A DNA stretch of 64,000 bases. It comes from Gammaproteobacteria bacterium. Its GTDB lineage: Bacteria > Pseudomonadota > Gammaproteobacteria > GCA-001735895. The position numbers were made by a program, and so were the translations under genes. Positions within the stretch are counted from its first letter, which is position 1, and each line of letters starts with the position of its first letter. Shown here one piece after another: positions 23,272 to 53,761 of this stretch. The notes below the pieces were generated by a model, which was not told where the DNA came from, searched no databases, and saw only the letters and a program-made list of their open reading frames with translations. The stretch spans positions 2,976 to 66,975 of the forward strand of contig JBNKUM010000067.1 of assembly GCA_050298595.1 (NCBI GenBank), given 5' to 3'.

Positions 23272-24741
23272 TCATTCTCCACGCTGTTGATCAATACGTC
23301 GTCTGAACGAAGCCATAATGCTTTTATATAACTGATGCCCCAACACCTTGTCTTCTACTTCGGAATCTATACTGGGGTTATCATTCACTTCGATCACAAA
23401 TACACCCGCATCGGTTTCTTTTAGATCTACTCCATATAGACCATCACCAATCAGGTTAGCTGCTTTGACTGCGGTCTTAACTACCTTTTTGGGTGCAGCT
23501 TCTATGGTCATAGTTTCAAAGTCACCGCTATAGTTTTCACCTGCCGCATGATCGTAGATTTGCCAATGTCCGGAAGACATCATGTATTTACACACAAACA
23601 GAGGTTTACGATCGAGTACTCCTACGCGCCAGTCATAATCTGTGTACATGTATTCCTGCGCGAGGATAAGGTCAGAATCGCGAAACAGCTTTTGACAGGT
23701 AGATTTCAGCTCTTTTAAGTTTTCAGCCTTGTAAACACCACGAGAAAAGGAGCCGTCGGGTATCTTTAGAATAATAGGGAAACTAATATCCTTACTGAGT
23801 TGCTTTTCCTGACCCTTGCTCAGGATTAATGTCTTTGGTGTCGGCACCTTATTGGCACGTAATAATTCTTCCAGAAACACCTTGTTAGTACAGCGCAATA
23901 TCGAATCAGGATCATCCATCACCACCAGTCCTTCATTCTGCGCCCGGCGCGCAAAACGAAAGGTATGGTGATCTATGGAAGTCGTTTCACGAATAAACAG
24001 GGCATCATATTCAGCAATGCGACCGTAATCTTTTTTAGTGATCAATTCTGCGGACATGCCTGACTCGTTTGCCGCCTTAATAAAGCACCCGAGTGCCTCT
24101 GCATCTGATGGCGGTAATTTCTCCGCTGGATTGTGCAAGATTGCCAGTTCATATTTATATTGGCGCTGAGCTTTTGGTTTACGCCAGGGTTTACTCAGAT
24201 AAGCCTGTAACGCTGAGACAAAAGTAATCTTTTCCTGATCATCAAGAGACTTGAGTGAAACTGGCCGAACATCTTCTATCCTCCAACCTTTTTTATACCT
24301 GAAATCTACTCGCAGTAAAGGCGTACTAAAGATCTCAAAAATCTGTTGCCCCAGTTCCTGTAACTCAGGAATAGAGGAACGACCAAACATCACTTTGATT
24401 TTCAGGCGTGTTATTTCCGAAGATAGTCCTTTTTTACTGATGGCTTTTTCCACCTGGTTTTCAAGATTTCGTGTCATCAGGCTATAGATAGAGCGTCGAC
24501 TCAAATCCTGAATAGTGCGCACCGACGGTATTACCTTATGGTTCCTGGCTTCGGCTAGCAGTGAACAGTAATAGCCCAGACTGGCATAGCGATGACTGCG
24601 ACACAGATTGACGATGCGCAAGCGCTGCTCGGGGGGATAGCTTTTGCCTGTCAGGTATTCATTTACGGTAATCACTTTCAGATCCGGAAATTGCTTAGGC
24701 CAGTGTGACAGCTTTTCGACGATGACTATGTGCTCTGACAT
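23272..24741 (-). CDS. RimK-family ATP-grasp protein with an N-terminal domain of about 190 aa (function unknown)
   Basis: The C-terminal 300 aa form an ATP-grasp (RimK/LysX-like …GSFSRGVYK…AQEYM.TDYDWRVGVLD…GVDLKE…VIEVNDNPS); a unique N-terminal domain; adjacent to the GNAT/C39 gene. Confidence 0.7.
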   Translation of the reverse strand: MSEHIVIVEKLSHWPKQFPDLKVITVNEYLTGKSYPPEQRLRIVNLCRSHRYASLGYYCSLLAEARNHKVIPSVRTIQDLSRRSIYSLMTRNLENQVEKAISKKGLSSEITRLKIKVMFGRSSIPELQELGQQIFEIFSTPLLRVDFRYKKGWRIEDVRPVSLKSLDDQEKITFVSALQAYLSKPWRKPKAQRQYKYELAILHNPAEKLPPSDAEALGCFIKAANESGMSAELITKKDYGRIAEYDALFIRETTSIDHHTFRFARRAQNEGLVVMDDPDSILRCTNKVFLEELLRANKVPTPKTLILSKGQEKQLSKDISFPIILKIPDGSFSRGVYKAENLKELKSTCQKLFRDSDLILAQEYMYTDYDWRVGVLDRKPLFVCKYMMSSGHWQIYDHAAGENYSGDFETMTIEAAPKKVVKTAVKAANLIGDGLYGVDLKETDAGVFVIEVNDNPSIDSEVEDKVLGHQLYKSIMASFRRRIDQQRGE

Positions 24742-24762
24742 TCTTTTTCTCAGCCCGGGTAA

Positions 24763-25866
24763 TTATTTTTTGTGGTTATTCGAAATCAATACGACAGCCT
24801 GCAGGCCAGAACGACCGAAACGTGCCATGCGTGAGAACTCCCTGCGCGGGATAGCGATATTGATTGAGTCAGTTGGTGTTTCTCCTTCCTCACGATCAAC
24901 AAAAGGGTCATTCACGTATACCAGATGCTGGTCAAATCCACAAACGACTACCCAGTGAGGATTCTTTTCACCATAAATACGGTAAGAACTGATCAGTACA
25001 ATCGGAATCGCACCTGAGTTAAGCCTGGCTTCCATCTCCGGTTGTTCCAGGTTCTGGTAATGCACCGGGATCTGGTAATCTTTGATCTCCCCCAGCATCT
25101 CTTCATGTACCAGACGCATGACTTCTTTCTTTTCTGGGCTACGTACTGTTTCCACAAATGGCACGCCCTGATCATTAACATGAATAACTGCATTGAATCC
25201 ACGCTTATGAGCCGCTAGCGCCAGACCAAAGGGGCCGCAGCCGCCATGGCCGGATGTCATAAATATCGTAGTCGCTTCACGCCATAGACGGATTTCCAGT
25301 GTTCTATCCAGTGTCAATTCAGGTTGCAGACTTTTCATTGCCATCATCAAAGCAGAAGCACCGCAGGTAAATTCCAGTGTCTGCTCGTAAAAAGGCATAT
25401 TGGCTAATTGTGGAGGCTGATCTGGTTGCAGGCTTTTCTCGAAGCGTAGTGCGGGCATATGATCTTCATAATAATCTGCCAGTACGCCAAAGCGATGGTA
25501 GCCCAGTCCTTCAAACAGTCGCAATGACGCAGCATTGTCTTCTCGTATTTCAAGGCGAATATAAAAACGTCCCTGATCACGTGCCGCGGTTTCGGCAGCA
25601 TTGACCAGCCGCCTGCCTATTCCCATGCCACGAGCGCGTTCCTCGATGGCAATAGAATACAGACGTGCAACCGAGGTTGCCCGGTTATATAGCACCATGA
25701 CATATCCAGCCAGCCCTTCATTATCTTCAGATAACAGTATATCCGCATGAGAGCGGGTCAGCAGATAACGCCATTGTCGACGTGAAATCAGGTCTGTCTC
25801 GAAACAACGTTTTTCTATACCCGTGAGCTGGTCAATATCAGAAAGTTTGGCAGGGCGGATCAACAA
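24763..25866 (-). CDS. Bifunctional GNAT N-acetyltransferase / peptidase C39-like protein
   Basis: N-terminal GNAT region (…RLYSIAIEERARGMGIGRRL…) and a C-terminal papain-like region with a candidate catalytic Cys (FTCGASALMMA) and a downstream His; paired with the RimK-family gene. Confidence 0.65.
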   Translation of the reverse strand: MLIRPAKLSDIDQLTGIEKRCFETDLISRRQWRYLLTRSHADILLSEDNEGLAGYVMVLYNRATSVARLYSIAIEERARGMGIGRRLVNAAETAARDQGRFYIRLEIREDNAASLRLFEGLGYHRFGVLADYYEDHMPALRFEKSLQPDQPPQLANMPFYEQTLEFTCGASALMMAMKSLQPELTLDRTLEIRLWREATTIFMTSGHGGCGPFGLALAAHKRGFNAVIHVNDQGVPFVETVRSPEKKEVMRLVHEEMLGEIKDYQIPVHYQNLEQPEMEARLNSGAIPIVLISSYRIYGEKNPHWVVVCGFDQHLVYVNDPFVDREEGETPTDSINIAIPRREFSRMARFGRSGLQAVVLISNNHKK

Positions 25867-26155: not shown

Positions 26156-27283
26156 ATGAGTTTCTGCCGCTTTTACGATAATGCAGACTGCCGTTCCTGT
26201 TCGTTGCTTGAGCTCTCCTACCCAATGCAATTGCAACAGAAAGAACAACAACTGCATCAGATTCTCGATCACTTCAAACCAGCCCACTGGCTTGCGCCGA
26301 TAACCGGATCTCAAACAGGTTTCCGCAACAAAGCAAAAATGGTCGCTACAGCGTCACCCCAGGGTATCGTACTCGGATTGTCTGGTGGCATTAGTCTGAT
26401 CGAATGTCCACTGTATGAAAGCAACATGCAAAGGGTATTGCAGCAGGTGCAGCGCTGGTTGAATACTATAGGGGTCAAAGCATATGACGTAAAACGTAAA
26501 AGCGGTGAATTAAAGTATGTATTATTCACCCGCAGCACATACGATAACTCGATGATGCTGCGTTTTGTATTACGCTCGACGTCCAGTATTGATGTTCTGC
26601 GCAAATCTCTCAACTTACTACTCAATAGCGCAACTGAATTAAAAGTAGTCAGTGTCAATCTACAACCTGTACACATGGCGATACTCGAGGGTGATGAAGA
26701 GATTTTTCTCACAGAGCAAACTGTGCTGGAGGAATCCCTGAATGGAATCCCGCTGTTCATCCGGCCCAAAAGCTTTTTCCAGACCAATCCTGAAGTAGCG
26801 GCAAAGCTATACCAGAGCGCAGCTGAATGGGTCGACTCTACCGGCGCTAAAACTATTATGGATCTGTTTTGCGGTGTCGGCGGATTTGCCCTGCATGTCG
26901 CGAATAATGATCGTAACGTCATTGGCATTGAAATCGAAGAGGAAGCCATCATCTGTGCGTCCAAATCTGCCAGGCGACTCGGCATCAATACTCTGAGCTT
27001 TAAAGCACTGGATGCAACGAGTTACAGCACAGAAACATCTACTCCGCCTGAGGTACTCATTGTCAATCCTCCGCGCAGAGGATTAGGCCAACAGCTATGC
27101 AACTGGATAGAAAGCAGTTCGCCTCAGCATATTATTTATTCAAGCTGTAATGCCGCCAGTCTCGGCCAGGATCTGACTGCAATGGAATCTTACAGTGTTG
27201 CCAAAGTACAGATGTTTGATATGTTCCCTCACTCGCGGCATTTCGAGACACTGGTTTATCTGGTAAAAAAAACAGGTAAATGA
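26156..27283 (+). CDS. rlmC: 23S rRNA (uracil747-C5)-methyltransferase
   Basis: 375 aa with an N-terminal Cys cluster (C…C..C), a SAM-binding motif (DLFCGVGGF) and a C-terminal catalytic nucleophile region (SSCNAASL), consistent with RlmC/RumB. Confidence 0.8.
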   Translation: MSFCRFYDNADCRSCSLLELSYPMQLQQKEQQLHQILDHFKPAHWLAPITGSQTGFRNKAKMVATASPQGIVLGLSGGISLIECPLYESNMQRVLQQVQRWLNTIGVKAYDVKRKSGELKYVLFTRSTYDNSMMLRFVLRSTSSIDVLRKSLNLLLNSATELKVVSVNLQPVHMAILEGDEEIFLTEQTVLEESLNGIPLFIRPKSFFQTNPEVAAKLYQSAAEWVDSTGAKTIMDLFCGVGGFALHVANNDRNVIGIEIEEEAIICASKSARRLGINTLSFKALDATSYSTETSTPPEVLIVNPPRRGLGQQLCNWIESSSPQHIIYSSCNAASLGQDLTAMESYSVAKVQMFDMFPHSRHFETLVYLVKKTGK

Positions 27284-27286
27284 TAT

Positions 27287-30100
27287 TTAGTCTTTCAATG
27301 CTTTTAATATGGTCGTGTAGTCAAAGTTCCTGGCGAGCTGAGTCAGTTTGCTCTGTAATTCCTGGTCGTGCATCGAAACCTGCTGGATGACCGCCTCAAT
27401 GCGCTTGGACTCCAGGCTTTCTAGCACTTCAACGAACTCATTGCGCAGTGCTTCAGGCAGGCTATTCAACATCTGCGGCGTTAACGATATATCCGGTTCT
27501 ATTACGTCTGATTCCACAGCGCTCTCATAAAGATATTTCACGCCTAGCTGTCTTGAAAGGCAATCATAAATCTCGCCCGGTCGGTAGGGCTTGCGCACAT
27601 AGTCATCCATGCCACTAGCAAGCATTTCGTCCCGCTCTTCGTCAAACGCCGATGCAGTCACTGCAGCAATCTTAACCTCCTTGCCACCCGCTAATTCACG
27701 GATGCGCCGTGTCGCCTGTATGCCATCCATCACAGGCATGCGTCTATCCATCCAGATGAAATGTGGATGCCAGCTCTCAAACAGTTGTACCCCCTGCTCA
27801 CCGTTCTCGGCTATCCTGACCTTAAAACCAACAGATTCCATAAACCTGCTCAGTAGCAACTGATTATCACGCTGGTCTTCCACGATCAAAATACGATACT
27901 CGCCCTGGTCAGGGGCCAGCGCCATCACTTCGTCCTTGACGATCACCTGCTCTGCCATAGTAATATCTGCCTCCTGTGCTTCAATCAGGGGTAGGTCGAG
28001 CCTGAACAACGAGCCTTTACCTGGAGCACTTTCCAGCCAGATATTCCCGCCCATCATCTTTACAAATTGACGCGTAATCGTTAATCCCAGCCCGGTGCCT
28101 TTATTGGTACCCTGTTCGCCAAGTTGCACAAAAGGCTCGAAAACCTTTTGCTGGTCTTCAACCGCTATGCCAATGCCAGTGTCCTCTACATCGATCAGCA
28201 GATGAGAGATCTTATTATCCTTTGTGTCCAGGCGTAGCGTGACCCCCCCCTGCTCAGTATTTTTGATGGCGTTGCTTACCAGATTGATCAGAATCTGCCG
28301 TAGACGGGCCTGATCACCGACAATGAAACGTGGGAATAGAGAACTCTGGTCGATCCTTAATTGCAGGCCTTTGTTGAAAGCACGTTGCTGCATCATGTCA
28401 ATAATATCGCGCACCAGAGTACCCAGATCGAAGGCTGCATTTTCCAGATTCACCTGTCCCGCTTCGATCTTGGCCATATCTAGCACATCGTTAATCAGCG
28501 CCAGCAGATGTTTACCGCTACGACTAATAATTTCGATGTTCTCACGCAGGGATTCGTGTAGTAATGGATTATTGGTCATGAGTTCGGAGAACCCGAGGAT
28601 GGCGTTCAGAGGTGTGCGAAGTTCATGACTCATATTGGCCAGGAAGGCACTCTTGGCACGGCTGGCTGATTCAGCGTGTTCCTTGGCAGATAGCAACTGC
28701 CGATTTGAATCGGCTAACTCGTGAGTACGTTCATTCACCTTTGCCTCCAGGCCCCCAATTAATGCATGCAATTGACCTGCAATATTATTAAAGACGGATG
28801 TCAGCTCACTGATTTCATCTTCCGATTGGGGTGCTATTGGATGCTGTAGATAACGTCTCAGAGCAATACGCTGGCTATACTCTCTATCTACTTCTTCTTC
28901 CACCATCTCAGGTTTCTCCAGACCCATCGCAGATACTGCCCTGGTAAGCGCCCTGATCGGTGCAACGATTCTACTGATCAAGGAGTATCCGACGGCACCT
29001 CCCAACACAAGAATAAACACAGACGCGGCAATAATGCCCATGACGGTTTGGCGGATGGTGGCAATGGTGTTTTCCCTCGAAAGTGCCTGACTCAGAATAA
29101 GCGAGCTACCATCCTCTGCTATCTGCCAGGGCATAGAAGCCTGGTAGTAGGAATCCCCTCCTATATTTACGGTATGCAACTGGATAAGCGGGTCTCTTTG
29201 CGCAGACAAAACTTCAGTTGGTGTAGCCAGATCTACCAATTGAACACGCTGCTGCCCATCTGCGGAGATAATAGCCGGCAACAAACCCGTCTTCTCAGTA
29301 AGATTTTGCAGAAAGCCTTTGTCAAATACCTGAGTAAAAACAAACATACCGATCCTGACCGGTAAGTCCTCCTGCGTTAGCTGGGCTTGCAAAGCTGTCG
29401 TAGGCGTGGCTATGCTCAGGTTTTCGGCAATGACTTCGTTAAAAGACTGGCGAATCATACCTTGAATCGGCACTATCACGTGCAGCTCGATAACCTCTTG
29501 TGCAGGAAAATCGAAGCTTACCGTCACCCTGTCCACATTGGGAAAGTGGCGATGGATTGATCCTGGCAGTGGGATTTCTGACCAGTTACGCCAGTCATCC
29601 AGCGGTACCTTACCATTTCTGTACTGCTGAATCCCAACCACCCTAGTTTGACTATCGTGTCGCTTTATCATGCCCGCCGCCTGCGGCGTCACAAAATGTG
29701 ACAGGTCATCATCTAGATACACCGCCACACTGGACAGGCGTGCGGAGAGCAGGATTAACTGTAAGCGGTTTAAGGATGTGACCCGGTTAAGACTTACAGC
29801 GCTGTCGAGAGGAGCGCTAGGTTGATTTTTCAGCTTGAGTAGCTGGCTGTATAAAACAGCCATATCGCTAAGATTCTTTTCGTCACGCGCGGCTTGCATA
29901 GACACATTAGACATACGGTTGCGCATTTCCTGTAGATCGTTTTGAAATACGATCAACTCACGTGACAATCGGTTATAGGCTTCTGCCTGACTCTCGCGGT
30001 TAATCAGGTATGAAGCCAGCAGGGCATTAAGCAGCGTAACCGCTAACAGAAATGCCGCAAAGATAGCCAGTAGCTTGTATTTAATACTTACAATTTTCAC
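27287..30100 (-). CDS. Hybrid sensor histidine kinase / response regulator (copy 1) with a periplasmic sensor domain of about 320 aa
   Basis: Order: TM, periplasmic domain, TM, HAMP-like region, HisKA ([17 protein letters not shown]), HATPase (GTGLGLTI), REC (…MDRRMPVMDG…DDYVRKP), then a conserved tail of about 80 aa. About 55% identical to the kinase at 31766-34588. Confidence 0.85.
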   Translation of the reverse strand: MKIVSIKYKLLAIFAAFLLAVTLLNALLASYLINRESQAEAYNRLSRELIVFQNDLQEMRNRMSNVSMQAARDEKNLSDMAVLYSQLLKLKNQPSAPLDSAVSLNRVTSLNRLQLILLSARLSSVAVYLDDDLSHFVTPQAAGMIKRHDSQTRVVGIQQYRNGKVPLDDWRNWSEIPLPGSIHRHFPNVDRVTVSFDFPAQEVIELHVIVPIQGMIRQSFNEVIAENLSIATPTTALQAQLTQEDLPVRIGMFVFTQVFDKGFLQNLTEKTGLLPAIISADGQQRVQLVDLATPTEVLSAQRDPLIQLHTVNIGGDSYYQASMPWQIAEDGSSLILSQALSRENTIATIRQTVMGIIAASVFILVLGGAVGYSLISRIVAPIRALTRAVSAMGLEKPEMVEEEVDREYSQRIALRRYLQHPIAPQSEDEISELTSVFNNIAGQLHALIGGLEAKVNERTHELADSNRQLLSAKEHAESASRAKSAFLANMSHELRTPLNAILGFSELMTNNPLLHESLRENIEIISRSGKHLLALINDVLDMAKIEAGQVNLENAAFDLGTLVRDIIDMMQQRAFNKGLQLRIDQSSLFPRFIVGDQARLRQILINLVSNAIKNTEQGGVTLRLDTKDNKISHLLIDVEDTGIGIAVEDQQKVFEPFVQLGEQGTNKGTGLGLTITRQFVKMMGGNIWLESAPGKGSLFRLDLPLIEAQEADITMAEQVIVKDEVMALAPDQGEYRILIVEDQRDNQLLLSRFMESVGFKVRIAENGEQGVQLFESWHPHFIWMDRRMPVMDGIQATRRIRELAGGKEVKIAAVTASAFDEERDEMLASGMDDYVRKPYRPGEIYDCLSRQLGVKYLYESAVESDVIEPDISLTPQMLNSLPEALRNEFVEVLESLESKRIEAVIQQVSMHDQELQSKLTQLARNFDYTTILKALKD

Positions 30101-30184
30101 TATTAATTAGCATCAGTAATCGATGCACGTCCCTCAATCAATCAGCTGATAAAAAACAGGGGCTCGTTGCACATCCGTTCAACA

Positions 30185-31546
30185 CTACCGATGAGCATAA
30201 CCGTTATGATCTTGAATGTCCTGATCAATCTTTTCGGCTGCTTTACTGAGTTCGGCCTGCACATCAGCCCCTTTAATTATATTATCTACCGCCTCGGCGA
30301 AGACTTTGGTGATAGTTGCATAGGCTGGCGTGAGGGGACGAGGCACAGCCCAACCGGCTTCTATCTGTTGAACATACACGTTTAAAGGGCCACCTGGCTG
30401 GTAAAGCTCTGACCTGGCAAATGCCGATTTACGCGCCGGTACACCAGGGTGAATACCTGTCCAACGCACAATCTTGTCGGGTTGCAGAATATAGTCCAGG
30501 ATCGCCCAGCTCCCTTCAGGATTCTGGCAGGAGCTGGTGATACCAAAATTCCAGGCACCCAAACCAGTTTTGGGTCCATTGCCAAAGTCAGGCATGGGGA
30601 TGACAACCAAATCTTCGCCCAAAGCATCCGCATAGCTGCTATAGGTCCAGTGTCCTACCCAGGAAAGCGCCGCTTTGCCAGAAGCAAAATCCGTATCTCC
30701 CTGTGGGCTGGGGTTAGCCCAGCCCTTCTGGAACCAGCTCTGGAAATGCTGCATAGCTGTGACGGATTGAGGTCCATCCAGTACGCCTTTGGCAGACTGG
30801 TAGTTATTGCGATCAATCAAGTCACCGCCGAAAGACTGCAGGATGGGTGAAAAACCATAGGTAAAGAATTCACCGCGCCCATAGTTGATTTTCATATCCA
30901 GTGGATATTCAACGTCTGGGACGGCGGCCAGTTTTTCTAAAGCCGCTTCAAACTCAGCCAGATCCCATGGCTGCTGGATGGTAGGTATGCGCACGCCAGC
31001 TGCCTTTAGGTACTGGCGATTGCCATACATCGCCAGACCAGAGTCAACTATACCCAGTGTATACAGATTATTATTGTAGGTTCCCTGGGCAATGATAGAG
31101 GGCAGGAAATCGGCCTTCATCTGTGCTGACACAAAGCGGTCTATGGGTTGCAGGTAACCCAGCCAGGCCAGATATGAGACCATAGGTCCGTCAAAGAAAA
31201 GCAGGCAGGGCAGATCACCTGTGCGCCCGGCAGCCAGGATGCGGTCGGTGTAAATGCCTTCTGGCACCAGTGTCATCTCGGCTGAGTAGCGATCCTGCTC
31301 CTTGTTAAAGTCCTTCAGATTGAGTTCCATTGCTTTTAAGGCATTACCGGTACCGGCATTGAACCATACCGTCACGATTTGATTCCTGCTAACTGCGGCT
31401 GATGGAGGCTTAATCTTAGTGGGCGCTGGTTCAGGCGCTATACTGGCTGGTGGGCTTTTAGCAGTGGGTTCACTGGGTGGATCGCAAGCCGTTAGCACGG
31501 ATGCTAGCATGAATAAAATTATTAGATAACTAACCTTCTTGTGCAT
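30185..31546 (-). CDS. Periplasmic solute-binding protein, ABC family 1 (sugar-type), lipoprotein; partner of hybrid kinase copy 1
   Basis: Signal peptide with lipobox (LTAC); typical family-1 binding-protein length and motifs; about 65% identical to the copy at 34615-35982; directly upstream of, and co-directional with, the kinase. Confidence 0.75.
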   Translation of the reverse strand: MHKKVSYLIILFMLASVLTACDPPSEPTAKSPPASIAPEPAPTKIKPPSAAVSRNQIVTVWFNAGTGNALKAMELNLKDFNKEQDRYSAEMTLVPEGIYTDRILAAGRTGDLPCLLFFDGPMVSYLAWLGYLQPIDRFVSAQMKADFLPSIIAQGTYNNNLYTLGIVDSGLAMYGNRQYLKAAGVRIPTIQQPWDLAEFEAALEKLAAVPDVEYPLDMKINYGRGEFFTYGFSPILQSFGGDLIDRNNYQSAKGVLDGPQSVTAMQHFQSWFQKGWANPSPQGDTDFASGKAALSWVGHWTYSSYADALGEDLVVIPMPDFGNGPKTGLGAWNFGITSSCQNPEGSWAILDYILQPDKIVRWTGIHPGVPARKSAFARSELYQPGGPLNVYVQQIEAGWAVPRPLTPAYATITKVFAEAVDNIIKGADVQAELSKAAEKIDQDIQDHNGYAHR

Positions 31547-31765
31547 GACTTTTCACCTGTAAATGAATCGAATACCTTTTCAATCGTCGAGCTCTAATGA
31601 TCTGCCTGTCAGCAGCGGGATGCATGCGCTACTGCTTTTACTTTTATCTTCATACCCTTCAGACTCCTGAGTGTGAAAACCTATTTCTTACTTACGCGAT
31701 ATATAGCCCAGTTTGCACAGCGGTGTATGAATAATAAACGCCTCAGCCTTAGATCGACAGGCCAA

Positions 31766-34588
31766 TTATTCAGCCTTATTTAGTGCTCTTAATATAGCAG
31801 GGTAATCAAACTTACTGGCGAGCTGGCTGAGTGCCCTGTGTAACGCCGGGTCAATCGCCTCGGTGCGCTGGATCACTGCCTCAATGCTCTCGGGCTCCAG
31901 ACTTTCCAGTACCTCAATAAGCTCACTACGTAACACTTCTGGTAACTTTTCCAGCATCTGTGGCGTTAATACTACATGCTCATCTTGCGCCTTTGACGCA
32001 GTACTTCCGTACAGATATTTAACGCCCAGGTGTTTTGATATCACATCGTAGATTAGCGTCGCTCTGTATGGTTTGCTCACGTAATCGTCCATACCGATTT
32101 TTAGAATTTCATTGCGCTCCTCTTCAAAGGCCGAGGCGGTCACCGCGACAATCTTTACCTCTTTGCCGTCAGGCAATTCCCGGATACGTCGTGTTGCCTG
32201 CATGCCATCCATCACCGGCATATGTATATCCATCCAGATTAAATGTGGATGCCAGCTCTGAAACAGTTGTACACCCTGCTCACCATTTTCCGCCAGCTTT
32301 ATCTGGAAACCAACACTCTCCATAATTTCAGAAAGAAGGAGTTGATTGTCGCTCTGGTCTTCGACGATCAGGATACGGTATTCGGGTTGTCCCGGCGCAA
32401 GGCTAGTCACAACCCCCCTGCCAATCTGATCCGGTTTGCTGATATCCTGTTCCAGTGCTTCCTGCAAGATCAGTTCTATGCTGAATACCGTGCCTTTATC
32501 AATCTCGCTTTGCAGGCTGATACTGCCACCCATCATTTGCACGAACTGGCGCGTAATAGCCAGCCCGAGTCCCGTGCCCTTACTGCTATCCTTTTCACCC
32601 ACCTGTACGAAGGGGTCGAAGATAAGTTGTTGATCTTCAGGGCTGATACCTATGCCTGTATCCTCAACCTCGATCAGCAGATGAGATATTCTGTTTTGCT
32701 TTGTGGCCAGACGCAGAGTCACGCCCCCCTGCTGGGTAGCTCTGATGGCATTCCCTATCAGATTGATCAGAATCTGGCGCAGGCGCGACTCGTCGCCTAC
32801 GATGTAACGAGGGAACTGCGATGACTGGTCGACATGTAATTGCAGATCCTTATTTTCCGCGCGTATGCGCATCATATCGATAACATCTCGTAGCATACCG
32901 CCCAGATCAAAAGGCTCATTCTCCAGTTGTACCCGCCCGGCTTCTATCTTGGCCATTTCCAACACATCGTTGATCAGCGTTAGCAGGTATTCGCCACTAC
33001 GATTAATAATATTATTATTGTGCTGTAATCTTTCAGGCAGTGATGGATCCTGGTTCATCAGGTTGGAAAACCCGAGGATAGCGTTCAATGGGGTACGCAG
33101 TTCGTGGCTCATGTTGGCAAGGAAAGTACTCTTGGCTCGGTTGGCAACTTCGGCCTTTTCTTTGGCCGCCTGTAACTCCTGAGTGCGTTCGTCAACGCGT
33201 TGCTCCAGTGTTTCAAACGATTGCCGCAGTTGCCTGATCATGGCATTGAAGGCGGCGGCCAGTTGCCCTACTTCATCACTGGCTTTAAGGTCAATCTCGA
33301 TCAGCTTATCCGAGACTACAGGCGTATCTTTCGCTGTGGAACTATTAATCTGGGTGTTCAGACCGATGCGTGAAACGCTTTCCGTTAAGGCCACAATCGG
33401 TTTGACCAGACGATCTAACAGTATATAGCCCAATATCCAGACCACGATCAAAACCAGAGTAGCCAGGCCAATGAGTGCAGTAACGGTTTCTCGTATCTTC
33501 TGGGAGGCGCTCGCCCCTGATTGCGTAAACCCGATAATCAGCCGGGCTTTATCGCCATAGTGCAACAGGGTCAGGGCCTGGTAATAGGTTTCATCATCCA
33601 CGCTCAGAATCCTTTGTTGCATCGGTTGTTCAGGTGTCGCCTGACTCTGTTGCACCCATTGCACCAGATCTTCCGGCTTCATCTTCATTTTGACGATTTC
33701 GATTTGATGCATCCCATCTAACGAATACAGTGCTGGTAATAAACCACTTTTCTGCGCAATGCCTTGCAAAAATGCCTGGTCAAAGACCTTCTTGAATACA
33801 AAGGCACCAATGAGAACTGGTTTGATTTGGTCGGGATTTTTCTGGTTAAGCGCTTCCTGAGAAGCGATGACTGGATTGTTGACCACAAATCCTTCGGAGG
33901 AACCCAGGGTAATATTGTTTCGCATTACCGTTCGAGTAATTGCCTGTACCGGGACAACGATTTGCAATACCAACGCCTGCTGTTCAGAAAAATAAAAGGA
34001 AATCATGGGTTGCCTGGGTAATGTAATTTGAGATGAGATTAATGGAGGAGGGGTACCCAGCGGCCATATTGGCCAGTTATTGAACTTCATCTCTCCGCTC
34101 TGATCTGGATCAGTTTTAATCAGCCTCTGCTGCCCCTCCCGAAACACACTGATGCCAGCCTCAGTAGTAGTCACGAAATGACTTAACTCATTGCCCGTGT
34201 AAACGGCGGCGCTGGAAAATCCGGCCGTACGCAGAATAATCTGAAACCGATTCAGTGAAATGGTTTTATCGAACAGGAATCCGCGTTCATTCTTTGATGC
34301 TAGCTCAGGATAGTTCTTAAATTGCTGTGTTTTTGCATACAGCGTAGCCAGATCACTCAAGTTATCGATTCCGGTAACATTTTTTTCGGCAACCCTGCGC
34401 AGATCAGTTATCGTTTCCTGCAACTCGTACTGTAACAGGTCGGTCTGTTTGGTCAGGCTGCTAAACGCCTCTCGCTCGCTTTGTTGCGTGGTCAGGTAGA
34501 TGGCGAGTGCTACATTAAGCCCAGCGATAATGATCAGGGCCGTGCTAAACGCCAGCAGCAATTTCGTCTTGATACCCGATATGTTCAC
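31766..34588 (-). CDS. Hybrid sensor histidine kinase / response regulator (copy 2)
   Basis: Same architecture as 27287-30100 (His[19 protein letters not shown]; [13 protein letters not shown]…DDYVSKP; conserved tail). Confidence 0.85.
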
Positions 34589-34614
34589 TGTAACTTGTCA
34601 GCTTTTTCTGTGCA

Positions 34615-35982
34615 CTATTTGATCGGATAGCCGCCGTGATCTTTTATATCCTGGTCAATTTCCTGCGCCGCCCGGTGAAGTTCCGTTTTGACGTCTGCGC
34701 CATTAATAATATTCTCCATCGCTTCGGCAAAGACCTTTGAGATCACGGCATACGCTGGAGTGATCGGACGAGGAATGGCGCGCTCGCTTTCCAGTTGTTG
34801 TGCAATCAAATGTAAGGGGCCTGATTCACCATACAATTTTGACTGTGCCAGCACTGACTTCCGGGCCGGTGGGCCTCCGTTTTCGTTCGTCATACGTAAC
34901 ATTTCCTGCGGGGATAGCAGGAACTCGATGAATGTCCAGGCGCCAGTGGGATCCGGGCAATTGCTGGATATCCCCCAGCTCCAGCTACCCATCGCGGTTT
35001 TTGACCCATACCCAAAATCAGGCTGCGGTAACAACACCAGATCTTCCCCCAGAGCCTCGGCATGCGGTTTGTACATCCAGTGCCCCACCCAGGCGAGGGC
35101 CGCTTTTTTAGATCCGTAAAAATCGTCGTCCGTGGTCCTGGATTTGCCGGCCCAGCCCTTTTCAAACCAGCTCTGAAAGTGTTGCATGGCCTCAATCGAC
35201 TGGGGACTATCCAGCACGCCAGTTGCATGCTGGTAGCTGCTGCGATCAATCAGATCACCACCAAATGACTGGATGATGGGCGTAAAACACCATGAATAAA
35301 ACTCGCCAGGACCATAATTAATTTTCATATCAATTGCATACTCTACGTCAGGCAGGGCGGTCAGTTTTGCCAGCGCCTCTTCAAATTCGACCAGATTCCA
35401 CGGTTTTTCAAAGGTCGGTATGCGGATTCCAGCCGCGTTCAGATAGCGGCGATTGCCGTAGATTACCAGCCCTGAGTCAAACTGTCCGAGGCTATAGAGC
35501 TGTCCGTTGAAGGTTCCCTGGGTGAGAATCGAGGGCAATAAGTCGGCTTTTAGATCTGCTGAAACAAAACGGTCAATCGGCTGCAGATAGCCTGGCCATG
35601 CAAAGTTATAGAGGTATGGACCGTCAAACTCCAGGGCGCAGGCCAAACTACCAGACTGTGCGCTGCCAATGATCCGGTCAGCATAGATTTCCGGTGCAAT
35701 CGGCACATATTCTATGGTGTATTTATTTTGAGCCTGCTCAAAGGCTTCCACCGACTTAGCAAACACATCACCTTCTATGCTGCCAGGTAACATATGCGTC
35801 CAGACGCTGATCACTTTGCGCCTGTCTGTCTGGGGCGAGGGTGTTGAAGGTAGCGCTGTTGGTACTGAAGAGGGAGCGGCTAAAGCAGTGGATGTAGTCA
35901 AGTCCGAAATCCTGCAAAAAGTTAGTATCATGGCCACCAGAATCAGCTTATTTTGATAAAGTATTTTCTTTCTCATTTTCAC
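34615..35982 (-). CDS. Periplasmic solute-binding protein, ABC family 1 (copy 2), partner of hybrid kinase copy 2
   Basis: Signal peptide; paralog of 30185-31546; the 27-bp gap to the kinase start implies co-transcription. Confidence 0.75.
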   Translation of the reverse strand: MKMRKKILYQNKLILVAMILTFCRISDLTTSTALAAPSSVPTALPSTPSPQTDRRKVISVWTHMLPGSIEGDVFAKSVEAFEQAQNKYTIEYVPIAPEIYADRIIGSAQSGSLACALEFDGPYLYNFAWPGYLQPIDRFVSADLKADLLPSILTQGTFNGQLYSLGQFDSGLVIYGNRRYLNAAGIRIPTFEKPWNLVEFEEALAKLTALPDVEYAIDMKINYGPGEFYSWCFTPIIQSFGGDLIDRSSYQHATGVLDSPQSIEAMQHFQSWFEKGWAGKSRTTDDDFYGSKKAALAWVGHWMYKPHAEALGEDLVLLPQPDFGYGSKTAMGSWSWGISSNCPDPTGAWTFIEFLLSPQEMLRMTNENGGPPARKSVLAQSKLYGESGPLHLIAQQLESERAIPRPITPAYAVISKVFAEAMENIINGADVKTELHRAAQEIDQDIKDHGGYPIK

Positions 35983-36121
35983 TCCCCTCTAATGTACTTC
36001 AATACCAATGAGTAATTTCGGGCTCCTGACAAGCCGGCTCTGCTTATAATTAGGGCACCTCCGATGTAAATATTATGCCTTTCATATGTATCCAAATTAT
36101 GATTTGCCTGCTACATCATTA

Positions 36122-37927
36122 TTATTTCTGGAAATTTTCGGGTGAAATCCCCTTGCTGCACATCTCCAGAATTTTGTCTCCTGATACGGACTTGCTGTAA
36201 TAAAACCCTTGCGCAACATCACAATCCACGGATTTCAGAAATTCCTGCTGAGTACCCATCTCAACGCCTTCAGCAACCACTTTCAGATTCAGGCTATGGG
36301 CCATGGCAATAATGGCCAACGGAATCGCATTGCCATGCTCAGTACCAATGTTTTTTATAAAGGACTTATCGATCTTCAGTTCGTTGACGGGGAAATCCTG
36401 CAAATAGGCTAGACTTGAATATCCTGTTCCGAAATCATCAACTGAAAGCCCAACACCTAAATCATGCAGCTTGTTTAGAATATCCAGATTAGTTTTACTG
36501 TACTGCATCAGCAGACTTTCGGTTATCTCCAGTCCAAGCCTGGAGGGCGGTATCTGAAACTCTTCAATAGTACGATGCACGGTATCTTCAAAGCCATCTG
36601 AGTGTAATTGCGGCACTGAGATATTTACCGAGATAGATAAATCATCATAACCAGCATCATGCCATCGTCTTAATTCTGCACAACTCTCACGTAAGCCAAA
36701 CGCTCCAAGTTCCTTGATCAGTCCATTCGCTTCTGCTACCGGGATAAATTCTGCCGGGGATATCAACGTTCCATTGGCGAGACGCCATCGCATTAGCGCT
36801 TCAGCACCTATGATTTTATTTGTAGTTAAATCAATCTGTGGTTGATACTCCATAAACAGTTCCTGATTATGAATCGCATCTATGAGCAAATTGGAAAGGT
36901 TAAGATGATCCTGCACAGTCCTGTTTAATTCGCTGGTATACAGTTTGATTTCGGCTCGACCAGATTGCTTGGCGTGATACATGGCGGTATCGGCATTGCT
37001 CAACAGGGTATCCACATCCGTGCCGTCCTCCGGGTAAACAGCTATACCAATGCTAGCACCTATATGAAAATTCAAATCATTCATTTGAAATGGTATTCGA
37101 AGAGAATCAAATATTTTTCTGGCCATAGCCATGATATCTTGATTTTTCTGATGCAATGGTAGACAAATTACAAACTCATCTCCACCCAGCCTGGCAACAA
37201 TATCTTCATCACGTATGGCACTTTTAAGTCTATCGGCAACTTTACTTAGCAGCTTGTCGCCAGCATGATGTCCTAACGAATCGTTAATAATTTTAAATTG
37301 ATCCAGATCGAGAAACATCAATGCAATATTCTCATCACATCGTTTCGCTCGAGTGATTAGCTGGTTAAGTCGCTCCACCAACAATATACGATTGGGCATG
37401 TCGGTTAACGAATCATGAGTAGCGATATACCTGACCTGTTCTTCAACTCGCTTTCGCTCCTCAATTTCATGGCGTAATAAAACGTTAGCATCAACTAGCT
37501 CCTGAGTGCGCTCGCTAATACGTATATCAAGCTCTTTGCGTAAACCCGAAAGCTCGAGATGAGTATTGATTCGAGCCATTACTTCCGCAAAATTGATCGG
37601 TTTGGTAATGTAATCGACAGCACCCACGGCAAAACCATGCACCATATCGGATGTTTCTGTAGCAGCGCTTAAGAATATGATAGGGATATCTATCAGATCC
37701 TGTTCTAATCTGATGCGACGACAGGTCTCATAGCCATCAATACCCGGCATCATAATATCAAGCAGAATAAGGTCTGGCTTAGGGAGATTGGCCAGTTTTA
37801 GGCGTCGAAGTGCCTGTTCTCCACTTTGCGCGACTGCTATCTTGAGATTCTGCCCCTCAAGACCGTCAACTAGCAACTTCAGATTGGCAGGATTATCGTC
37901 AACTAGCAGGATAATTTTACTTACCAT
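36122..37927 (-). CDS. Response regulator with REC-GGDEF-EAL domains (predicted c-di-GMP turnover protein)
   Basis: N-terminal receiver (…LLDIMMPGIDG…), GGDEF (RLGGDEF) and EAL (EALMRW…) motifs all intact. Confidence 0.85.
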   Translation of the reverse strand: MVSKIILLVDDNPANLKLLVDGLEGQNLKIAVAQSGEQALRRLKLANLPKPDLILLDIMMPGIDGYETCRRIRLEQDLIDIPIIFLSAATETSDMVHGFAVGAVDYITKPINFAEVMARINTHLELSGLRKELDIRISERTQELVDANVLLRHEIEERKRVEEQVRYIATHDSLTDMPNRILLVERLNQLITRAKRCDENIALMFLDLDQFKIINDSLGHHAGDKLLSKVADRLKSAIRDEDIVARLGGDEFVICLPLHQKNQDIMAMARKIFDSLRIPFQMNDLNFHIGASIGIAVYPEDGTDVDTLLSNADTAMYHAKQSGRAEIKLYTSELNRTVQDHLNLSNLLIDAIHNQELFMEYQPQIDLTTNKIIGAEALMRWRLANGTLISPAEFIPVAEANGLIKELGAFGLRESCAELRRWHDAGYDDLSISVNISVPQLHSDGFEDTVHRTIEEFQIPPSRLGLEITESLLMQYSKTNLDILNKLHDLGVGLSVDDFGTGYSSLAYLQDFPVNELKIDKSFIKNIGTEHGNAIPLAIIAMAHSLNLKVVAEGVEMGTQQEFLKSVDCDVAQGFYYSKSVSGDKILEMCSKGISPENFQK

Positions 37928-38508
37928 ACTGAGTTAATCCCGACAGCACAAAACAGATAATTTGAGAGACAATATAGTTTTATTTTTTTCACAAAACTGC
38001 CTGCATAATTGATGAGTTCCTTATTTATTAAGCTGACGCTGTAAAACCCCGGATATCTATGCGCTCTGGAAGCGCCACCTTTTTGAGGACTTATCTATCA
38101 TTAAAAAAAGGTGAGAAAAACAACATCCTGCTATATTGTTTTCCTGTTAACCCTGAGATTCTTATACTGCAATATACTTTATAGCAAAATTTCAGGGAAT
38201 TCGCCTAAAAGGATTTTAAAGATTATTCAGGTAGTCTAAATCAAGTACATAGATTGAAATATGAGCCTGTTTATATTTTTATATTCAATAACTTATAGGA
38301 AATAGTTAGCTTTCTGATCAGTATTTTCAGGTTTATACAGGCATCCCAAAAAATTCAACTATGCGTGAGTCTGTCGGTACTTTTTCAGAGCTTCCTTAAA
38401 TGATGTTGTTCAAACCCACCACTGGAAAGCCAAATGTACTTGAAAAGTAAAAGCCAGGGATAGATCATCAGGGTTTAATTTTCATCCATTCCCAGAGAGC
38501 GGAAACCC

Positions 38509-38934
38509 ATGCATCATAATTCCAGCAAAGCTTATCGTGGTTCCTGCCTGTGTCGAGCTATTCAATTCGAAGCAAGTAACCTGTCACCACAAATGGGGCA
38601 TTGCCATTGCAGTATGTGCCGTAAGTTTCACGGTGCGGCTTTTGCTACCTTTGGCGAAACAACCTCTGAAAATTTTCGCTGGCTAAACGGAGCAGAGCTT
38701 CTTAAGAGTTATCAGGCCCCCAATGGAACCACCCGTCAGTTTTGTAGCGTCTGTGGCTCCAGTCTTACCTTTAAACCCAGTGGCGAGGATACCGGCCTGG
38801 TTGAATTTGCTCTGGGTGCACTGGATGGTCCAATTAGCGAACGGCCGGATGCTCACATCTTCACCGCCTACAAAGCTGACTGGATGGATCTTTGTGATGA
38901 TCTGCCTAAATTTAAGGAAGGCAGAGATGGTTGA
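38509..38934 (+). CDS. GFA (glutathione-dependent formaldehyde-activating / CENP-V) family protein
   Basis: Zn-binding Cys pattern C.C…C.C…C..C (GSCLCRA…HCHCSMCRK). Confidence 0.75.
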   Translation: MHHNSSKAYRGSCLCRAIQFEASNLSPQMGHCHCSMCRKFHGAAFATFGETTSENFRWLNGAELLKSYQAPNGTTRQFCSVCGSSLTFKPSGEDTGLVEFALGALDGPISERPDAHIFTAYKADWMDLCDDLPKFKEGRDG

Positions 38935-41329: not shown

Positions 41330-43030
41330 CTGGCACAGCCTGTGTGAAAACCCTACTTAGGAGTATAATAAGTCATTCAAATAGACAGGTGAAACAATGA
41401 CTGGATTCATTGAAGGCGTAGCCAGAATACAAGCCACCTTATTTCCTGAATTACTTGACGATTACATCAGCGAAGAAAATCCCGTTCGCGTTATTGATGC
41501 CTTTGTCGATAATCTTGACCTCGATAAATTGGGTTTCAAAACCTACCCAGCAATAACCGGTCGTCCTGGTTACCACCCATCCAGCATGCTCAAGCTGTTT
41601 ATCTACGGTTACCTCAATCGTATCCAGTCTTCTCGTCGTTTAGAAAGGGAGTCGGGGCGTAATGTCGAGTTAATGTGGTTACTCGGTCGTCTATCTCCCG
41701 ACTTTAAAACCATAGCTGACTTTAGAAAAGATAATGGTAAAGGCATTAAAAATACCTGTCGAACCTTTATCGATTTGTGCAGACAATTAAATATGTTCAC
41801 CGATGCTATTGTCGCCATTGATGGCAGTAAATTTAAAGCAGTCAATAGTAAAGAAAATAATTACACACCCAAGAAACTACAATTTCATATAGACCGGGTT
41901 GAGAAGCATATCGAAGACTATTTACAACAACTCGATACCGCTGACAGGGCAGAAAAACCAGAGACTGATGGCAGGTCTATCGAAGATAAAATCACCTGGC
42001 TTAAGAAAAGACTCGCTGAGTTAAAGGCACTGGAAGGTGAGGTGGACAATCATCCTGACAAACAACTATCAACAACGGATCCGGACTCTCGATTAATGAA
42101 AACACAAGGGATGACCAGAGTGGTTTGTTACAATGTACAAACGGCCGTTGACCCCAAAAACCACCTGATTGTAGCCCATAAGGTAACGAATACACCTGAT
42201 CGTGGACAACTCTGCGGTGTAGGTAAACTGGCTCAAGACGCACTGGATACTAAAGGGATCACTGTTATTGCTGACAAAGGTTATTACAGTGGCCAGGATA
42301 TCAAAGATGCTCAGGATGCGGGTATGACGGTACTTGTACCCAAAGGTGATACTTCTGGCAGCGAGAAAAAAGGCATATTTAACCGATCCCGGTTCGAATA
42401 CGATGCAGAGCAAGATAGATATATTTGCCCCGCCAAACAAGAGTTATCCTATCGATTCACTTCGGTTGAGAAAGGACTATCGTTAAAGAAGTATTGGGCC
42501 TATGAACCCACTTGTAGGGCTTGCTCGATGAAACCACAATGCTCTAACAGTAATCAGGCTCGTAGAATCACTCGTTGGGTTCATCAGGATAGATTGGATC
42601 AAATGGACAAGTTACTCTCTTCTCAGCCAGAGTGCATGCTCATCAGAAAGCAAACCGTTGAACACCCTTATGGCACGATTAAATGCTGGATGGGATCAAC
42701 TCATTTTTTAACGAGACAATTCAAAAATGTCAGCACCGAAATGAGTCTGCATGTTTTGGCTTACAATTTAAAACGCATGATGTCGTTATTTGGACAGGCT
42801 GGATTAGTCGCCGCAATGACAAAGGTATAGGGATTAATGGCCCATAGTAATTGCATCTATAAAATACGTCGATATGACGTGTTTATTCTTTTGTGTAAGC
42901 CAGACAATTTTCTTATTCATAAAAAGGACTCTGAAAATAAGGAAGCTCAGGACTTAGCATAAGAAGTCTGAATAATGACTGGAGGACGAAATTATTAAGA
43001 TAATAGTTTTTACACAGCCTGGGCACATAC
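41330..43030 (+). mobile_element. IS1182-family insertion sequence (about 1.7 kb) with imperfect terminal inverted repeats
   Basis: Left end …ggcacagcctgtgtgaaaaccc (about 41328-41350) versus right end ttttacacagcctgggcaca (about 43008-43030; its reverse complement gtgcccaggctgtgtaaaa matches). A single transposase ORF lies inside. Confidence 0.6.
41397..42830 (+). CDS. IS1182-family DDE transposase
   Basis: 477 aa; the N-terminus (…LFPE.LDDYI…NPVRVIDAFVD.LDL…GF…) and the downstream DDE region are typical of IS1182/IS5-superfamily transposases. Confidence 0.8.
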   Translation: MTGFIEGVARIQATLFPELLDDYISEENPVRVIDAFVDNLDLDKLGFKTYPAITGRPGYHPSSMLKLFIYGYLNRIQSSRRLERESGRNVELMWLLGRLSPDFKTIADFRKDNGKGIKNTCRTFIDLCRQLNMFTDAIVAIDGSKFKAVNSKENNYTPKKLQFHIDRVEKHIEDYLQQLDTADRAEKPETDGRSIEDKITWLKKRLAELKALEGEVDNHPDKQLSTTDPDSRLMKTQGMTRVVCYNVQTAVDPKNHLIVAHKVTNTPDRGQLCGVGKLAQDALDTKGITVIADKGYYSGQDIKDAQDAGMTVLVPKGDTSGSEKKGIFNRSRFEYDAEQDRYICPAKQELSYRFTSVEKGLSLKKYWAYEPTCRACSMKPQCSNSNQARRITRWVHQDRLDQMDKLLSSQPECMLIRKQTVEHPYGTIKCWMGSTHFLTRQFKNVSTEMSLHVLAYNLKRMMSLFGQAGLVAAMTKV

Positions 43031-53700: not shown

Positions 53701-53761
53701 GGATTGATATCATCAGGATGAAAAGACAAAAAAGAATGGCAAGGCATCTGGCCAACCGGGA

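Follow-up and report, generated by a model that had tools for sequence, protein, structure and literature searches.

Organisation of the locus

The DNA analysed here, referred to as the window, is a stretch of 64,000 nucleotides (nt) from a Gammaproteobacteria bacterium (GenBank assembly GCA_050298595.1, contig JBNKUM010000067.1), and the subject of this report is a cluster of five co-directional open reading frames (ORFs) on its minus strand (27287-37927), which encode in order a receiver (REC)-GGDEF-EAL protein, a solute-binding protein (SBP2), a hybrid histidine kinase (HK2), a second solute-binding protein (SBP1) and a second hybrid histidine kinase (HK1). Each SBP gene and the kinase gene directly downstream of it are treated as a module, i.e. 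module 1 (SBP1 and HK1) and module 2 (SBP2 and HK2). Across distant lineages the SBP is found with, and varies with, the periplasmic sensor domain of its kinase, and the modules are probably devices for binding-protein-dependent sensing. The features of the cluster, all on the minus strand, are given below.

36122..37927, minus strand: REC-GGDEF-EAL protein, 601 amino acids (aa); Pfam Response_reg-GGDEF-EAL plus motifs; candidate output
33365..36150, minus strand: exchangeable cassette (SBP2, HK2 sensor and HAMP), predicted to set specificity, delimited by sliding DNA identity
34615..35982, minus strand: SBP2, putative type-2 signalling SBP; Pfam SBP_bac_1/8; type-2 subclade of the kinase-linked SBPs
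31766..34588, minus strand: HK2, hybrid histidine kinase, 940 aa; Pfam HAMP-HisKA-HATPase_c-Response_reg
33497..34483, minus strand: HK2 periplasmic sensor domain, type 2; no Pfam match
30185..31546, minus strand: SBP1, putative type-1 signalling SBP, 453 aa; Pfam SBP_bac_8/SBP_bac_1; type-1 subclade
27287..30100, minus strand: HK1, hybrid histidine kinase, 937 aa; Pfam HAMP-HisKA-HATPase_c-Response_reg
29051..29998, minus strand: HK1 periplasmic sensor domain, type 1; modelled as a dCache-like double-PAS fold
27287..28690, minus strand: HK1 transmitter (DHp-CA-REC-tail), assigned to the type-2 lineage by region-wise identity

These coordinates and Pfam assignments agree with an earlier note on the same DNA, made from the sequence alone, which had described five co-directional minus-strand genes with these domains. 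Its distances of 27-84 bp between SBP and kinase genes and its periplasmic domains of about 320 aa are likewise borne out by gaps of 26 nt in module 2 and 84 nt in module 1 and by sensors of ~316 aa (HK1) and ~329 aa (HK2); the REC-GGDEF-EAL gene is separated from SBP2 by 139 nt. The arrangement is not an assembly artefact, because an independent contig of a metagenome-assembled genome (MAG; GCA_050300895.1) repeats the gene order at 99.6% identity across 15 kb.

Both kinases are built in the order first transmembrane segment (TM1), periplasmic sensor, second transmembrane segment (TM2), HAMP, dimerization and histidine phosphotransfer domain (DHp; His492 in HK1, His495 in HK2), catalytic and ATP-binding domain (CA), REC (Asp785 and Asp787, respectively) and a helical tail of 87 aa (HK1) or 88 aa (HK2). 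The signature motifs of hybrid kinases are intact in both (NLVSNAI and NLIGNAI, DTGIGI, GTGLGL, the receiver Asp and the conserved Lys). The REC-GGDEF-EAL protein also retains its motifs (Asp57, RDED as the RxxD I-site, GGDEF, EALMR, DDFGTG, EGVE and QGFY) and is by motif criteria a candidate cyclic di-GMP (c-di-GMP) enzyme.

Against the two Pfam SBP families, with gathering cut-offs of 27 and 26 bits, SBP1 scored 82.5 and 60.9 bits and SBP2 84.6 and 74.1 bits. The probable start of SBP2 is the ATG at 35976, giving 453 aa as called in the 99.6%-identical MAG, and the protein carries a signal peptide as well as a linker rich in Pro, Ser and Thr. SBP1 begins instead with a lipobox (LTAC), an Asp at position +2 and a Pro-rich tether of ~35 aa, unlike its type-1 orthologs in other lineages, which carry ordinary signal peptides; it is probably lipid-anchored and tethered. 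Under the Escherichia coli +2 rule an Asp at this position predicts inner-membrane retention, and retention at the inner membrane is therefore predicted for SBP1.

All ORFs of the window of at least 150 aa and the ~30 longest of the 45 small intergenic frames that reach 60 aa were scanned with Pfam. Neither an ABC permease, an ABC ATPase nor an Hpt domain was found among these frames or in the C-terminal tails of the kinases (zero PF01627 matches in kinases, tails and scanned ORFs), in keeping with the absence of HPt from the window that had been claimed before. A promoter and terminator scan of 26900-38800 returned counts equal to the shuffled expectation, with zero terminators in the four intergenic gaps, and no Rfam families were found in the window.

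Mosaic composition of the two modules

Identity between the two modules is lower than the ~65% (SBPs) and ~55% (kinases) of the earlier note, amounting to 53% for SBP1 and SBP2 (56% across the mature part) and 49% for HK1 and HK2 overall, and it is unevenly distributed along the kinases: 31% in the sensor, 33% in TM2 and HAMP, 72% in DHp, 68% in CA, 77% in REC and 55% in the tail. The HK1 sensor is 45-52% identical to sensors in other organisms, exceeding its identity to the HK2 sensor, and the HK2 sensor is 53-68% identical to those of Candidatus Thiodiazotropha and an Anaerolineae MAG (68% with the Thiodiazotropha locus L016). The SBPs show the same tendency, with relatives of SBP1 in other lineages at 74-88% identity and those of SBP2, in Thiodiazotropha and Anaerolineae, at 75-81%.

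The transmitter of HK1 is 69, 68 and 77% identical in DHp, CA and REC to that of the type-2 L016, as against 61, 41 and 33% to that of L006, a hybrid relative of type 1; in further relatives of this type the HisKA is of another, non-hybrid class, and a stand-alone receiver comes after it. The type-1 sensor is found joined to three types of transmitter, and the SBP stays with the sensor. On these identities the pair of modules is a mosaic, in which two old SBP-plus-sensor input subtypes sit on near-identical transmitters. HK1 combines a transmitter of type-2 descent with a type-1 sensor, and the present pair is therefore a chimera or graft rather than two diverged copies.

Association of the binding protein with the periplasmic sensor

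As a measure of the rarity of the sensor, 1.84 billion representative proteins were searched exhaustively with a profile; only 76 clusters (at 50% identity) matched with E ≤ 1e-3, and 40 with E ≤ 1e-30. A word-indexed search with the HK1 sensor gave 9 matches and was not used as a rarity measure, because it missed MAG homologs that are 94% identical. A scan of a genome collection with the sensor alignment, based on narrow patterns, yielded 9 loci, and gene contexts were drawn from look-ups, this genome scan and a metagenome scan.

An SBP_bac_1/8 gene lies directly upstream in all 30 kinases of the sensor family for which upstream DNA is available (29 of 29, and in addition the divergent L104), so that the SBP-then-kinase synteny previously suggested for a survey of relatives is conserved. 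The hosts of these pairs include Gammaproteobacteria, Ca. Thiodiazotropha, Anaerolineae and diverse metagenomes, and L104 represents a divergent third type (sensor 27% and SBP 47-50% identical). Pairing is strict, type-1 SBPs always occurring with type-1 sensors and type-2 SBPs with type-2 sensors. In a co-variation test on 20 non-redundant SBP-kinase pairs, SBP identity followed sensor identity with r = 0.91 over all pairs, 0.86 for the type-1 pairs and 0.82 for those of type 2 (each with a Mantel p of 2e-4), as compared with r = 0.42, 0.54 and -0.17, respectively, for SBP identity against the DHp/CA identity of the same kinase gene.

Comparison of the window with the closest MAGs gave DNA identities of 77-88% in the flanks, ~85% in the GGDEF-EAL gene, 92-98% in module 1 and 85-96% in the HK2 transmitter, dropping to 56-76% over ~36150-33365. 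This stretch coincides exactly with SBP2 and the sensor and HAMP of HK2, and these three elements have therefore been exchanged as one cassette. The high identity of module 1 (window 27290-31620) is to L004, L009 and L010 and, set against that of the flanking genes, suggests that this module was recently exchanged among these lineages and that of the window. Module 2 is missing from L009, where the 5' end of SBP2 is joined to the start of SBP1 (L009:8287-8556 versus window 35810-36121 and 31546-31558), and this looks like a loss by deletion between the tandem modules. In Thiodiazotropha L014 (6019-9973) two intact, divergent type-2 SBP genes and a third that is split or frameshifted stand in tandem ahead of one kinase; they are preceded by a LamB porin gene and a REC-PAS-GGDEF-EAL gene, and the locus has no transporter.

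Lineage of the binding proteins

The SBP family is large (2123 matches at E ≤ 1e-3; 336 metagenome loci), and its loci were classed with seeds for the sensor, CUT1 permeases, GH32 and LamB. Neither CUT1 permease genes nor GH32 occur in any of the 25 kinase-linked loci (305 kb), whereas all 56 ABC-linked sister loci have CUT1 permease genes and 19 of them GH32 (15 among the 29 loci that include 4 kb or more of downstream DNA), the GH32 assignment being confirmed by Pfam in 7/7 tested. Two BPD_transp_1 permease genes beside the SBP, the mark of a CUT1 importer, were thus seen neither in the window nor in these 25 loci, and the absence of ABC permease and ATPase genes beside the SBPs, first noted for the window, extends to the kinase-linked loci at large.

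By neighbour-joining all kinase-linked SBPs fall into a single clade whose sister group is the ABC-linked SBPs (bootstrap 99/100, or 100/100 with L104), and inside this clade the type-1 and type-2 subtypes each have a bootstrap of 100/100. The nearest relatives outside this clade are SBPs of ABC transporters at 50-61% identity, and the nearest solved structures by sequence are distant CUT1 sugar or oligosaccharide binders (E ~1e-14). Public annotation names the kinase-linked proteins 'sugar ABC transporter substrate-binding protein', and no NCBIfam model was found for them.

Two other arrangements were seen on the ABC side of the tree. One SBP subclade (L048:1476-5794, also L065 and L081) has no downstream permease, and in L048 a dCache_1-HAMP hybrid kinase lies ~650 bp downstream of the SBP gene; here an SBP may have been recruited to signalling a separate time. 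In a soil-metagenome subclade (L072-L074, e.g. L074:1010-7724) a histidine kinase and a response regulator are encoded directly upstream of an ABC-linked SBP and permeases, which looks like a classical two-component system controlling a transporter.

Fold of the periplasmic sensor

A model of the N-terminal 372 residues of HK1 (pLDDT 85, pTM 0.80) places TM1, long helices, two PAS-like alpha/beta modules and TM2 in this order, and the HK1 sensor can be assigned confidently, at the level of the model, to the dCache-like double-PAS fold of LuxQ, DctB and CuaS. The structures closest to the model include the direct ligand binders DctB, PscC, TlpA and Mlp24; for a further match, 8w7p (NagS), the literature search gave nothing usable. 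The likeness to Cache domains is one of fold only, since the Cache, CHASE and LuxQ-periplasm Pfam models (including dCache_1 PF02743 and PF09308) had no match to the periplasmic region at E ≤ 10. An objection raised beforehand, that these might be standard Cache domains binding ligand by themselves, is half borne out, by the dCache-like fold and by two distant chemoreceptor members of the sensor family (described below) that lack an adjacent SBP gene. The NCBIfam equivalogs TorS, BarA, LuxQ and ArcB were not reached by the kinases, the best score being 375-380 bits for TorS against a cut-off of 676 and confined to the transmitter. The dCache-like fold is also that of the SBP-dependent sensors LuxQ, ChiS, VirA, HptS, MbaA and CuaS (PMC8050422, PMC10384115), and, being common to direct binders and SBP-dependent sensors alike, it does not by itself decide the mechanism.

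Ligand

The commonest partner in the sister transporter operons is the GH32 beta-fructosidase, and LamB-family porins with an N-terminal coiled coil are encoded directly upstream of type-2 modules in L013 (3293-4843), L014 (4444-5961) and L015 (7063-8553). A LamB-family porin also adjoins the type-2 module of L017 (12904-14394), the Pfam E-values being 1e-75 to 1e-76, and L016 gave a weak fragment match. The Thiodiazotropha porin loci have no ABC transporter; no porin genes were found in the window itself. The sucrose porin ScrY is known to have such a coiled coil at its N-terminus (PMC6173795).

Because of the GH32-rich sister operons and the ScrY-like porins of Thiodiazotropha, the ligand may be a beta-fructoside, for example sucrose or a fructo-oligosaccharide; this is our best guess, and a tentative one that may well prove wrong. 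It is held at this level because GH32 is not universal among the ABC-linked relatives: one sister subclade carries GH13 together with a phosphorylase in its place, and others are uninformative. The transporter SBPs on which the guess is built are, moreover, only 50-61% identical to the signalling SBPs.

Output and the C-terminal tail of the kinases

The two kinases probably share one partner because their transmitters are near-identical, and whether both would feed a common downstream pathway we regard as evenly balanced. HPt-less hybrid kinases are common, e.g. LuxQ with LuxU, and the missing HPt within the 64 kb is unremarkable for hybrid kinases.

The tail that follows REC in both kinases (~87 aa) is acidic and is modelled as a disordered linker and five short helices, with no Pfam family and no conserved His. 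It occupies 27287-27550 in HK1 and 31766-32032 in HK2, and recurs at 8890-9150 in an unrelated PAS-PAS-PAS hybrid kinase (8890-12552) and in metagenome hybrid kinases, with the C-terminal pattern 'LA..FD...I'. A degenerate HPt was ruled out as its identity, for want of a conserved His and of a Pfam match. A DNA-binding domain like that of ChiS was also considered, and nothing in the acidic helical bundle points to DNA binding.

As for the c-di-GMP enzyme, its gene is conserved in the group of the window and retained in L009 after the loss of module 2. A 71%-identical ortholog occurs in T. taylori (L013), where it lies two genes ahead of a type-2 module, the intervening gene being that of the porin, and other Thiodiazotropha type-2 modules are adjoined by genes for REC-PAS-GGDEF-EAL (L014) or REC-HD-GYP (L015) proteins. 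The synteny with a c-di-GMP enzyme that had been anticipated therefore holds beside type-2 modules in several lineages, but fails in many relatives.

Proposed mechanism and alternative explanations

We propose that the cluster encodes two three-component-style sensory modules. In each, a periplasmic family-1 (CUT1-like) SBP would capture a carbohydrate, and the loaded SBP would dock on the dCache-like periplasmic sensor of the kinase whose gene follows directly, a step that may switch the state of HAMP and DHp in the hybrid kinase. The modules would differ in their input cassettes of SBP and sensor, diverged anciently into type 1 and type 2, and have nearly the same transmitter, and two related ligand signals would most likely enter one phosphorelay through an HPt encoded elsewhere. 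By its adjacency, the REC-GGDEF-EAL enzyme would be the best candidate target of the relay, with the c-di-GMP level as output. The SBPs are presumed to descend from transporter SBPs, whose operons often include GH32, and to be now dedicated to signalling; the ligand would be a sugar, a beta-fructoside being the best guess. We consider this mechanism as a whole reasonably likely, and its core, binding-protein-dependent sensing, quite probable from the comparative evidence. The architecture for such sensing that the earlier note had recognised is upheld by the conserved synteny, by the co-variation of SBP and sensor and by the fold class of LuxQ, ChiS and CuaS.

Several points weigh against SBP-dependent sensing, and they lend themselves to two other accounts of how the SBPs are used. 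The dCache-like domains might bind the signal themselves, the SBPs being accessory proteins that scavenge or concentrate the ligand, or simply unrelated neighbours. Domains of the dCache class usually bind small ligands directly, as the structures closest to the model do, and since the sensor fold is dCache-like some direct binding could occur here. In two distant members of the sensor family (L101:6001-8796 and L103:6001-8787; sensors 25-31% identical) the sensor belongs to a fusion protein with HAMP arrays and a methyl-accepting chemotaxis signalling domain, and no SBP gene lies less than 6 kb away. An SBP and a kinase encoded side by side need not work together, as was shown for AgtS and AruS of Pseudomonas aeruginosa, where the neighbours do not interact (PMC11113362), and CuaS may sense cellobiose weakly without CuaD (PMC10384115). 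The co-variation of SBP and sensor may also partly mirror physical linkage, and co-inheritance may be in part plain linkage, because the sensor-coding end of the kinase gene abuts the SBP gene. Such direct sensing is nonetheless hard to reconcile with SBP adjacency in 30/30 kinases across phyla without a transporter, with a monophyletic kinase-linked SBP clade, with the swap of SBP and sensor as one cassette and the correlated divergence within subtypes, and with the amplification of SBP genes ahead of one kinase. The SBPs are, in addition, far more conserved than the sensors (88% versus 50% and 81% versus 68%), which fits the SBP as the reader of the ligand and the sensor as a docking surface, and we judge direct sensing quite unlikely. 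The other account has the SBPs serving an ABC importer encoded elsewhere as well, as CBP does besides acting on ChiS and GltB besides acting on GtrS, with the kinases coupling uptake status to signalling. It draws on these precedents (PMC8050422), on nearest relatives outside the clade that are bona fide transporter SBPs (50-61% identity) and on the 64 kb of genome that is visible, beyond which a partner ABC transporter could be encoded. A CUT1 permease in 0/25 kinase-linked loci against 56/56 in the sister clade, the long separate existence of the kinase-linked clade and the precedent of dedicated signalling paralogs such as CuaD (PMC10384115) speak against it, and a dual role of this kind seems improbable.

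The evolution of the pair and the fate of its signal can likewise be read differently. The earlier note took one module to have been duplicated and then to have diverged, and the two modules do agree in gene order and domain architecture and have transmitters 68-77% identical; only the transmitter halves, however, are close paralogs. With sensors at 31% and SBPs at 53-56% identity, both closer to relatives in other organisms, and with 100/100 bootstrap for each SBP subtype, the input halves are two ancient subtypes, and a simple lineage-specific tandem duplication is very improbable. With respect to the signal, c-di-GMP output through the adjacent enzyme is plausible, if somewhat short of an even chance. 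The kinases might instead bypass their neighbour, either acting on an unlinked HPt and response regulator or ending the pathway in their own REC and tail, so that the c-di-GMP gene would be there by coincidence. HPt is unlinked and absent from the window, and the phosphorelay to the GGDEF-EAL protein is inferred from adjacency only. In many relatives a c-di-GMP gene is missing from the neighbourhood, and in its place there is a stand-alone REC (type-1 relatives), REC-PAS kinases or nothing; the gap of 139 nt before SBP2 and the uninformative promoter and terminator scans fit such a bypass too. Weighed against these are the ortholog that again lies near a type-2 module in T. taylori, the c-di-GMP-related genes that flank type-2 modules in L014 and L015 and the retention of the gene in L009 despite the deletion of module 2, and the bypass is a serious contender that still falls below probable.

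Neighbouring genes

A tRNA (uracil-5)-methyltransferase-like gene (26156-27283, plus strand) converges on HK1 and ends 3 nt from its stop; L009 and L010 have no such gene at this position, and their downstream flank joins directly. An insertion sequence (IS) transposase gene (DUF772 and DDE_Tnp_1_6; 41397-42830, plus strand) lies 3.5 kb from the cluster and occupies the same site in the 99.6%-identical MAG contig L019. At 23272-25866 (minus strand) a gene for a RimK-like ATP-grasp protein with an RLAN domain adjoins one for a fusion of GNAT with DUF3335 (C39-like peptidase), and the two look like a conserved pair. The three genes at 51625-56232 (plus strand), for a TonB-dependent receptor, a periplasmic protein of the YfiR/HmsC type (DUF4154) and a hybrid histidine kinase with CHASE8, are a second arrangement of periplasmic protein plus kinase in the window.

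Relation to known systems and significance

Sensor kinases stimulated by SBPs, the 'three-component system', are an established class of mechanism (PMC8050422), and the finding therefore extends rather than overturns known biology. The closest analogue is CuaD/CuaS/CuaR of Ruminiclostridium cellulolyticum, in which a signalling-dedicated family-1 sugar SBP, a paralog of a transporter SBP, binds a sensor whose gene adjoins its own and whose extracytoplasmic domain (~270-330 aa) consists, as in the window, of a long helix and two alpha/beta (PAS-like) modules (PMC10384115); for the window modules docking is predicted. CuaS, however, is a classical kinase with an AraC-type regulator that controls the cognate cellobiose ABC transporter, whereas the window has hybrid kinases, two modules, a Gram-negative host and no linked regulator, transporter or catabolic genes, and no shared family membership was found at sequence level.

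In CBP/ChiS, the chitin-sensing system of Vibrio, an SBP for sugar oligomers acts on a hybrid kinase that likewise lacks an HPt and whose periplasmic domain is dCache-like (PMC8050422, PMC12704726), but CBP is an SBP_bac_5 protein that also serves an ABC transporter, and ChiS binds DNA through its C-terminal domain according to the literature, unlike the acidic helical bundles of the window tails. NspS/MbaA, which senses polyamines in Vibrio cholerae, shares an SBP_bac_8 protein, a dCache-like domain, c-di-GMP turnover and a ligand that is a cue and not a nutrient (PMC8050422); MbaA is itself the GGDEF-EAL enzyme, whereas in the window a hybrid kinase and a presumed phosphorelay would precede a soluble REC-GGDEF-EAL protein. 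GltB of P. aeruginosa is an SBP_bac_1 sugar-binding protein that stimulates the sensor kinase GtrS in glucose sensing (PMC8050422), but is also a transporter SBP encoded with transporter genes, and GtrS regulates glucose catabolism. LuxP/LuxQ, the AI-2 sensor of Vibrio, resembles the window modules in its HPt-less hybrid kinase and differs in that LuxP belongs to Peripla_BP_4, not SBP_bac_1/8, and that the output is to quorum-sensing regulators; the LuxQ-periplasm Pfam model has no match to the window sensors, and the NCBIfam LuxQ score is far under its cut-off. Like L015 and the window, RpfC/RpfG and comparable pairs have a hybrid kinase beside an effector of the REC-HD-GYP or REC-GGDEF/EAL kind. 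RpfC, however, carries its own HPt and senses the diffusible signal factor without an SBP, whereas the window kinases have no fused or linked HPt.

No description of the SBP and sensor family of the window was found in the literature searched, and the modules are, in our assessment, an uncharacterised family within a known sensor class. Their analysis defines a family of sensor kinases that Pfam and NCBIfam leave unannotated, together with a monophyletic clade of SBPs that databases label as transporter parts and that is wired to a kinase in every case seen. It also provides unusually clean comparative evidence that an SBP and a periplasmic sensor are inherited and exchanged as one input cassette, apart from the kinase core. 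Besides this exchange of cassettes on a constant transmitter, a second feature of interest is the occurrence of a transporter-free, putatively sugar-sensing lineage among relatives of chemosynthetic symbionts, for which a concrete beta-fructoside hypothesis of the signalling ligand can now be put forward. Lucinid symbionts live in seagrass sediments. Seagrass roots release sucrose into sediments (PMC9262712). A transport-independent pathway for a periplasmic sugar cue in sulfur-oxidising, symbiont-related Gammaproteobacteria is a speculative and on balance unlikely extension of these observations. In it a ScrY-like LamB porin, as encoded in Thiodiazotropha loci, would let in a beta-fructoside such as sucrose, signalling-only SBPs descended from those of GH32-linked transporters would detect it, and swappable cassettes of SBP and sensor on a constant hybrid-kinase transmitter would pass the signal to REC-c-di-GMP enzymes. 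If true, it would mean that chemoautotrophs sense plant or host sugar as a signal of habitat and not as food, and that swaps of cassettes between close relatives retune specificity in the manner of pherotype loci.

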